Assembly: GCF_003334355.1 (NCBI RefSeq)
Contig: NZ_QOWP01000003.1
Length of the DNA stretch: 64,000 bases
Reading direction: 5' to 3' (one strand)
Origin: Escherichia coli
GTDB lineage: Bacteria; Pseudomonadota; Gammaproteobacteria; Enterobacterales; Enterobacteriaceae
Shown: piece after piece, positions 15,359 to 16,795 of the stretch
Numbering within the stretch: position 1 is the first letter of the stretch
How the letters are laid out: the number at the start of each line of letters is the position of its first letter
The notes under the pieces: generated by a model
The model's database searches: none
Told to the model about the DNA's origin: nothing
The model's input: only the letters and a program-made list of their open reading frames with translations
Translations under genes and position numbers: made by a program

Positions 15359-16795
15359 TTATTGGCTTAACAGACCGTTTTTACGTGCCTGTTCTTCCCA
15401 CTGCGGGATCACCGTTTTGATGAAGTCCTGCTTCTCGGCCTTGATTTGTTCCATGTTCAGGCCAATGGCCTGTTGGGCTTTCTCTTTGGTTGAGATATCC
15501 GGGATCTGGATTTCATGGGTGATGCCTTTGGTCGCCAGCAGGCGCGCCAGTTTGGTGCGTGCATCCGCCGCTTTATCCATCGCCGTACCGAGCATCCGTA
15601 AACCTTCTTCCGGTGCGTGCATATGAATGCCGTGGGAAGCGATCGCCAGATCCCAGCGCCACTGGGCATGACGGATATCGTCCTGAATTGGCTTCATTTC
15701 AGCTTCCGTCGCGCCTGCATCCAGCGCTGCTTTCGCTTCGAAGTGAGCGTGAACCAGTTGATCTTCAACCTTGATTTTCAGGTCGTTAATCGACTGCTTA
15801 CGTTCCGCGACCACTTTTTGCAAGGCAGCTTTGTCCTGGGTATGGCAGTTCGCACAAGTCTGGGCGAAGTTATCAAACGGATTACCAATTTTATGGTCGG
15901 TGTAGAGTTTGCCTTCGGCGTTCTGCACTTTTGGCATATGGCAGTCGATACAGGTCACGTTGTTTTTACCGTGAATGCCCGCTGTCCAGGTTTCATATTC
16001 CGGGTGCTGCGCTTTCAGCATTGGCGTTTTCGACAGGGAGTTAGTCCAGTCAGAGAAGGCAATTTTGTCGTAATACTGCTCCATATTTTCGACTTTCATG
16101 CCGTCATCCCACGGGAATTTAACCGCTTTGTTTTTGCCGTCGAAGTAATACTCCACATGGCACTGACCGCAAACCATCGATTGCTGGTCGAAACGTCCGG
16201 CTTTCTCAAAAGGTTTACCAATGGCTTCCATCGCGCGAGCCGCATACGGACGGGAAAGGGTTAACTCCGGTTTGCCTTTGGCGAACTCTGGAGAGGCGGT
16301 GTTATGGCAATCGGCACAACCTAAGTTGTTGACGATTTCCGGACCGCCGCGCGCCCATTTACCGTGGAAGTAGCCATCTTCGCCGTCTTTCTGGATCAGA
16401 CGCGCCACATCCGGGCTTTTACAACTCCAGCATGCCATCGGTAGCGGACCATCTTCAGCGTTTTTCGGCGCACCGGTACGCAGGGTTTCACGCACATCGG
16501 TCACAGCAAAAGCATGTCCACGCGGCTTGTTGTAATCGCGCGAGAAGGGATACCCCGCCCACAGGATCACCAGCCGTGGATCTTCCGCCAGGGCGTCAAC
16601 ACGCTCTGACTGTTCCGAGGTGGCTTTCCAGGAGAGATATTGATCGGGATGCTGCGGGGCAAAGGTTTCATTCTTCGCTTCCACAGTTACAGTTTTTGCG
16701 GGAGCAGCCGTTTGTTCAGCGTGAACAGAAGTGAAAAAGAAAAAAGGAATCAATAAGCTGAAGATACGGCGTGCGTTTATTTTTATCCTTGTCAT
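15359..16795 (-). CDS. nrfA: Cytochrome c552 nitrite reductase NrfA (478 aa)
   Basis: [15 protein letters not shown] signal peptide; active-site CWSCK (16418-16432) plus four CxxCH motifs. Confidence 0.93.

Follow-up and report, generated by a model that had tools for sequence, protein, structure and literature searches.

A CTG codon as the probable translation start of nrfE in the nrfABCDEFG operon of Escherichia coli

We analysed a stretch of Escherichia coli DNA of 64,000 nucleotides (nt) (assembly GCF_003334355.1, contig NZ_QOWP01000003.1), referred to as the window, which carries the nrfABCDEFG operon on its minus strand. Our comparison of sequences suggests that translation of nrfE, the gene for the CcmF-like subunit of the heme lyase, starts at CTG 13107, with a probability of roughly 0.8. 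The resulting protein would have 572 amino acids (aa) and a complete first transmembrane helix (TM1). The initial annotation of the window had placed the nrfE start at GTG 13047 or TTG 13071. A non-ATG start is indeed supported, but the choice of codon was probably wrong, since comparison favours CTG 13107.

The nrfE frame opens after the TGA at 13140-13138, and the first ATG, GTG or TTG that follows is TTG 13071. Both TTG 13071 and GTG 13047 exist and are in frame with nrfE. In the K-12 reference (NC_000913.3, b4074), nrfE begins at GTG 13047, encodes 552 aa and leaves a 79-nt gap after nrfD, whereas RefSeq, annotated by the Prokaryotic Genome Annotation Pipeline (PGAP), begins it at CTG 13107, with 572 aa and a 19-nt gap. 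Every base of the K-12 nrfD-nrfE junction is identical to the window; the conflict therefore lies in the annotation only, and this is the sole difference between the K-12 operon and that of the window. In five of five non-K-12 genomes inspected, the PGAP start of nrfE locates about 19-20 nt past nrfD.

The N-terminal motif of the CcmF/NrfE family provides a reference for comparing the three codons. In 20 homologues picked by query coverage only, P6, E7 and G9 are invariant, and no gap occurs down to the next block (DFSV). The curated model NF007691 (573 positions) matches with its positions 1-573 from the codon after CTG 13107, and position 2 of TIGR03145 aligns to NrfE L15, directly before PEVG. 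We further collected 80 CcmF/NrfE loci from one-genome-per-species contigs, 79 of which have an intact 5' end; the DNA corresponding to an Atlantibacter NrfE fragment (P0033) was not traced. The N-terminus of all 79 intact loci is M-x-[PAV..]-[ED]-x-G or a short extension thereof. PExG is found at the corresponding place in 63 of the 80 loci. In 59 of these 63, a canonical start stands just 5' of the motif, 1-6 codons upstream of P (47 are ATG at -2), whereas E. coli NrfE offers only CTG. The four PExG loci without a canonical start, from E. albertii, Citrobacter werkmanii, Citrobacter sp. FP75 and Enterobacter sp. BIGb0383, all have CTG at -5.

The invariance of P6, E7 and G9 in the homologue alignment A2 is partly circular, because its loci were picked for PExG. 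For this reason the 17 loci that lack PExG were looked at on their own: sixteen have variants of the form M-x-[AVPIG]-[ED]-x-G, among them MIAELG, MIPDLG and MIVEVG, and the remaining contig is incomplete. TTG 13071 and GTG 13047 are located 7 and 15 codons downstream of the conserved P. An N-terminus of the form M-x(1-7)-[P..]-[ED]-x-G followed by a complete TM1 is obtained from CTG 13107 only, not from GTG 13047 or TTG 13071.

The NrfE protein carries the WWD motif WGGWWFWD at residue 238, and H95, H175, H263, H305 and H427 do not vary among 60 homologues. AlphaFold, supplied with 60 homologues, gave a model with a predicted local distance difference test score (pLDDT) of 86.7 and a predicted template-modelling score (pTM) of 0.89. 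In this model a helix extends over residues 5-33, and the mean pLDDT of the first four ten-residue blocks is 84, 98, 94 and 91. Foldseek aligned the model with Thermus thermophilus CcmF 6ZMQ (E 5.6e-22, template-modelling score, TM, 0.78), and the model thus has the CcmF fold. The profile of the N-terminal alignment matches 6ZMQ from residue 23, the first hydrophobic segment (TM1). GTG 13047 corresponds to residue 21 of the 572-aa protein, in the middle of predicted helix 1, and the 20 residues that a start there would remove are conserved in the family and form the first half of TM1.

At the nucleotide level, all 5,416 E. coli records match the 61-nt junction at 95% identity or more, with nrfE under the match in 30 of 30 sampled rows. 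Among the sampled E. coli variant classes, three other sites differ, and CTG and the GAGGTG Shine-Dalgarno sequence are constant. The GGTG of the latter is kept in Citrobacter, in Enterobacter sp. and in a relative of 59% identity (L090), which has TTG exactly at the CTG position, after AAGGTG. In two Citrobacter and in Enterobacter sp., an in-frame TGA precedes CTG by one codon (TGA TAT/TTT CTG GAC), so that CTG is the only near-cognate start upstream of PExG there. In Salmonella, a single base separates the nrfD stop from CTG, while nrfE of Pectobacterium, Haemophilus and Shewanella starts with ATG. The spacer from nrfD to CTG varies in length (19, 8 or 1 nt), and the sequence that can be aligned between genera starts abruptly at CTG.

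We also compared, over six taxa, the 20 extra codons that precede GTG 13047. Their variable sites number 6/1/9 at codon positions 1/2/3, beside 40/30/75 and 37/15/81 in downstream coding sequence. Of the six first-position changes, three exchange one Leu codon for another; at the protein level just three residues vary, each conservatively. The substitution pattern of the extra codons resembles that of the coding sequence downstream.

A variant of the motif itself was seen in two records, the E. coli E5 chromosome (L084) and the 94-kb record p009_C (L085). Both carry GGT->AGT at the position equivalent to window 13081-13083, which changes Gly of PEVG to Ser (WP_071526285.1). One of the two is labelled a plasmid despite its chromosomal nrf operon and may be an assembly artefact.

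On the other hand, several points weigh against a start at CTG 13107. CTG is the commonest Leu codon, so the conservation of CTG alone is weak evidence. The curated K-12 record uses GTG 13047, and Salmonella has an extra in-frame TTG three codons 5' of CTG, overlapping the nrfD end. A 17-column N-terminal profile of non-enteric homologues found no significant match among the six-frame fragments of the window, and the nrfE fragment is not among the top-scoring fragments listed; the profile is too short and too hydrophobic, and hence uninformative. A truncated NrfE with an N-in topology from the second transmembrane helix (TM2) is not impossible. nrfE is missing from the two N-terminomics supplement sets that were checked, and a literature search by start codon, retapamulin and N-terminal extension did not link it with CTG. 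The CTG list of EcoGene 3.0 gives hda and yfjD as confirmed and yghF' as predicted, and does not name nrfE (PMC3531124). CUG is a weak start, with about 1-2% of AUG initiation in reporters (bioRxiv 10.1101/063800). Finally, the 19-nt gap between nrfD and nrfE is at the distance where reinitiation coupling is nearly lost (PMC10666635); initiation at CTG would therefore rest mainly on the Shine-Dalgarno sequence, a strong one and the likelier driver of nrfE initiation in E. coli than reinitiation.

The K-12 annotation itself gives the first alternative, in which nrfE starts at GTG 13047 and the 79 nt after nrfD are an untranslated spacer. GTG is a canonical start codon, and a weak purine run (GGGG) lies 6 nt upstream of it. 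However, the supposed spacer encodes the conserved N-terminal motif of the family, in frame and ungapped, and its 20 codons evolve as coding sequence. A protein beginning here would also start inside a confidently predicted helix of 29 residues, which corresponds to TM1 of the solved CcmF. The codon is not conserved as a start, being CTG in Enterobacter sp. BIGb0383, and PGAP uses it in none of the non-K-12 genomes inspected. We consider this start unlikely.

The same GTG might instead serve as an internal start, which yields a minor truncated isoform beside full-length NrfE from CTG 13107. Internal in-frame starts are known in bacteria, CTG is inefficient, and the weak purine run precedes GTG 13047 in this case as well. 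Against such an isoform, GTG 13047 is not kept as a start codon between genera, and nothing points to a function of NrfE that lacks half of TM1. Dual starts thus seem improbable, much as GTG 13047 alone does.

A 560-aa NrfE from TTG 13071 has in its favour that this is the first ATG, GTG or TTG past the in-frame stop. It is very unlikely, because the 20 nt upstream contain no Shine-Dalgarno-like sequence, the codon lies past the conserved P of PEVG, and four of five other taxa have another codon at this position (CTG in E. albertii, Salmonella and C. werkmanii; CTA in Enterobacter sp.). Recoding, either by a +1 frameshift from the out-of-frame GTG 13114 or by an NrfD-NrfE fusion through a shift at the nrfD end, could draw on the +1 position of the nrfE frame relative to nrfD and on the GTG 7 nt upstream of CTG in Escherichia and Citrobacter, which opens an 8-codon open reading frame (ORF) ending at TGA 13090-13088, but is scarcely credible: neither GTG 13114 nor the nrfD end has a slippery sequence, GTG 13114 abuts and forms part of the Shine-Dalgarno sequence and is absent in Salmonella, the short ORF ends in a TGA that overlaps the P-E codons, where a shift would lose the conserved P, and the nrfE frame is open for just three codons before the nrfD stop.

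The 8-codon ORF (13088-13114, minus strand) reads MVSGRIPS before its stop and is also present in Citrobacter, not in Salmonella. It probably results incidentally from the nrfE Shine-Dalgarno sequence.

The locus that holds nrfE is the E. coli nrfABCDEFG operon, and the window is chromosomal. By BLAST, several RefSeq E. coli chromosomes match a 6.9-kb segment of the window (10300-17200) at 100% identity, and 5,415 of 5,426 complete E. coli genomes contain this nrfABCDEFG region at a coverage of at least 80%. A record identical over this segment is annotated gltP, nrfG, nrfF, nrfE, nrfD, nrfC, nrfB and nrfA, with acs next on the opposite strand. All seven Nrf products score above curated NCBIfam cut-offs in a profile search (Table 1). 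As the initial annotation had claimed, the operon carries its own lyase set: nrfEFG lie downstream of nrfA on the same strand and pass the curated models.

The K-12 operon (b4070-b4076) shares locus, gene order, overlaps and the neighbours acs and gltP with the window, and the aligned 11 kb around it in MG1655 are 98.9% identical. In a BLAST comparison with strain BE2-5, the nrf region is 100% identical and the identity elsewhere is 99.0-99.6%. An ungapped comparison with BE2-5 was unusable, with indels outside the nrf region. The nrf system described here is textbook biology and already known, and the CTG start is already present in RefSeq annotation and in NCBIfam models.

Table 1. Coordinates in the window of the nrf operon, the nrfD-nrfE junction and further features
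Feature	Coordinates	Strand	Description
nrfA	15359..16795	-	cytochrome c552 nitrite reductase, 478 aa, ATG start; 872 bits vs cut-off 595 (NF008339, equivalog), 825 vs 692 (TIGR03152); PDB 1GU6
CWSCK codons	16418..16432	-	attachment site of the lysine-ligated active-site heme 1 (role from PMC12285233, PMC3601427)
nrfB	14748..15314	-	pentaheme cytochrome, 188 aa, five CxxCH; 311 bits vs cut-off 184 (NCBIfam)
nrfC	14080..14751	-	Fe-S subunit; 419 bits vs cut-off 378 (NCBIfam)
nrfD	13127..14083	-	quinol-oxidising membrane subunit; 466 bits vs cut-off 348 (NCBIfam)
nrfE	11389..13107	-	CcmF-like heme lyase subunit, 572 aa from the probable start CTG 13107; 1159 bits vs cut-off 394 (NF007691)
nrfF	11013..11396	-	CcmH-N-like thiol-oxidoreductase subunit, 127 aa, one CxxC (CPQC); 208 bits vs cut-off 159 (TIGR03147)
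nrfG	10420..11016	-	TPR subunit, 198 aa; 398 bits vs cut-off 306 (NF007692)
GAGGTG	13112..13117	-	Shine-Dalgarno sequence, 4 nt 5' of CTG
CTG	13105..13107	-	most likely initiation codon of nrfE
P-E-V-G codons	13081..13092	-	conserved CcmF/NrfE N-terminal motif, upstream of both starts of the initial annotation
TTG	13069..13071	-	first canonical start of the ORF, 560 aa, without Shine-Dalgarno sequence
GTG	13045..13047	-	start of the K-12 reference and of the initial annotation, 552 aa, in the middle of predicted helix 1
nrfB/C overlap	14748-14751	-	ATGA, nrfC ATG on nrfB stop
nrfC/D overlap	14080-14083	-	ATGA, nrfD ATG on nrfC stop
nrfE/F overlap	11389-11396	-	8 nt, ATGAGTAA
nrfF/G overlap	11013-11016	-	ATGA, nrfG ATG on nrfF stop
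SECIS element	5943-5997	+	inside fdhF (Rfam)
sraL small RNA	26495-26635	+	next to soxR (Rfam)
naRNA4 (REP-type), five copies	8466-8536, 8579-8649, 19184-19255, 55224-55294, 59452-59522	-	Rfam

NrfA is a periplasmic pentaheme nitrite reductase, in which hemes 2-5 are bound to CXXCH and ligated by two His, and the catalytic heme 1 is bound to CXXCK, whose lysine is the proximal iron ligand (PMC12285233, PMC3601427). The NrfA of the window has four CxxCH (CADCH, CGQCH, CIDCH and CANCH) and one CxxCK, the latter encoded by TGC TGG AGT TGT AAA at 16432..16418 of the minus strand (residues 122-126). The initial annotation had reported this CWSCK site; its coordinates are exact, and the gene matches solved E. 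coli NrfA, with residues 27-478 matching chains 1GU6 and 2RDZ. The bare CxxCK pattern occurs six times over the six reading frames of the window and is hence not rare; CWSCK is meaningful because of its host protein, NrfA, and not because of pattern statistics.

In E. coli, the general Ccm system attaches the four CXXCH hemes and CXXCK needs NrfEFG (PMC12285233, PMC3601427). The requirement for NrfE in this attachment is credited to Eaves et al. 1998 and Grove et al. 1996 in two reviews (PMC12285233, PMC3601427). NrfE is paralogous to CcmF, NrfF to the N-terminal part of CcmH and NrfG to CcmI, the C-terminal part of E. coli CcmH; the TPR domain of NrfG binds NrfA (PMC12285233, PMC3601427).

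The genes of the operon are chained by 4-nt and 8-nt overlaps, as the initial annotation had stated, and all of them proved exact on a check of the sequence; between nrfA and nrfB there is a gap of 44 nt. Neighbouring genes on the same strand of E. coli are most often arranged with overlaps of -4, -1 and -8, about 24% of the pairs fall between -8 and +6, and in reporters these overlaps support termination-reinitiation coupling, which gaps of about 20 nt nearly abolish (PMC10666635). Translational coupling can reasonably be expected at the -4 and -8 overlaps of nrf, which are an ordinary arrangement. nrfB-C-D and nrfE-F-G would probably be coupled by termination and reinitiation through these overlaps.

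The ends of several genes in the operon show further features. Inside nrfF, the nrfG frame stays open for 22 codons further (11016-11082, minus strand), up to an ATG at 11082, giving a 220-aa ORF; the curated NrfG model has 8 N-terminal positions beyond the 198-aa protein, and the annotated start stays at the ATGA overlap at 11016. In C. werkmanii (L004, 4215-4711), a palindrome GCCTGATGGCGCTGCGCTTATCAGGC like those of the repetitive extragenic palindromic (REP) type lies between nrfE and nrfF. It keeps the frame open, and NrfE, linker and NrfF therefore form one ORF of 737 codons. Some Salmonella database entries are named 'NrfEF'.

The spacer between nrfA and nrfB contains a G+C-rich hairpin, UUCCGCCUC-GCAA-GGGGCGGAA (15332-15353, minus strand), with no U-run after it. 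It folds at -20 kcal/mol with a z-score of only -1.6, and could serve to protect or attenuate the nrfA message in comparison with the genes that follow. At 20-38 nt upstream of the nrfA ATG there is a perfect 8-bp inverted repeat, CGCCATTG-CAA-CAATGGCG (16815-16833); in the scan it is terminator-like on the plus strand, and on the nrfA strand it would form a leader hairpin. Further upstream, at 16892-16948 on the minus strand, lies an 18-codon ORF, MHLQLIKDNIHSVVICYT followed by a stop, with the position and length of ytcB, which is annotated in K-12 between acs and nrfA. This ytcB-like ORF overlies the FNR-like site TTGAT-N4-GACAA of the nrfA promoter region and is therefore upstream of the likely nrfA transcript start.

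Promoter and terminator scans gave hits at or under the shuffle expectation, and the Rfam scan found no RNA family within the operon. The Rfam matches elsewhere in the window are listed in Table 1. Two of the naRNA4 copies are within the stretch upstream of gltP (8464-8724), in which there is also a self-alignment, shifted by about 113 nt.

The lyase set has parallels in known systems. CcmF, including T. thermophilus 6ZMQ, and NrfE share the WWD motif, the conserved histidines, the N-terminal ExG motif and the fold described above. The 55 homologues of A2 outside the close enteric NrfE group are 635-685 aa long, compared with 572 aa for E. coli NrfE. NrfF and NrfG are the counterparts of the two halves of E. 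coli CcmH, but NrfEFG is dedicated to the CXXCK of NrfA, whereas Ccm handles CXXCH (PMC12285233, PMC3601427). In Wolinella succinogenes, the nrf operon likewise encodes a lyase reserved for the lysine-ligated heme of NrfA, namely NrfI (PMC12285233, PMC3601427). NrfI differs in being a System II lyase of the CcsBA type for CXXCK, from another maturation system, and the NrfE model matches CcsBA 7S9Y weakly (TM 0.41).

As for the start codon, by the EcoGene count of 2012 CTG had been demonstrated as a start in K-12 for hda and yfjD only (PMC3531124). Both genes resemble nrfE in having a conserved N-terminal coding segment without a canonical start, and CTG after a ribosome-binding site; in yfjD, as in nrfE, a downstream canonical start had been annotated earlier (EcoGene 3.0, PMC3531124). 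The two were confirmed by start-codon mutagenesis (PMC3531124), whereas the case for nrfE is comparative. The sequence marks of a CTG gene are found in nrfE: no canonical start precedes the conserved N-terminus, CTG has a Shine-Dalgarno sequence, and its position is kept in orthologues.

On the basis of these comparisons, translation of nrfE would begin at CTG, 19 nt past the nrfD stop and 4 nt past GAGGTG. The weak CUG would hold the membrane lyase low relative to NrfA, which would fit a lyase needed in small amounts. We think it likely that nrfE naturally begins with CTG in E. coli and in related Escherichia, Citrobacter and Enterobacter sp., that the 552-aa K-12 protein is short of 20 real residues including half of TM1, and that the weak start is a conserved device for a very low lyase level relative to NrfA.

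In practical terms, the matter is one of conflicting annotation in the reference genome used most widely. The 552-aa K-12 NrfE would lack half of the first transmembrane helix and the conserved N-terminal motif, and expression constructs, deletion boundaries, structure prediction and proteomics databases based on it would be affected. If the CTG start is true, nrfE would be one of very few E. coli genes with such a start, and would offer a clean case of a weak start codon setting the level of an assembly factor within a polycistronic operon.

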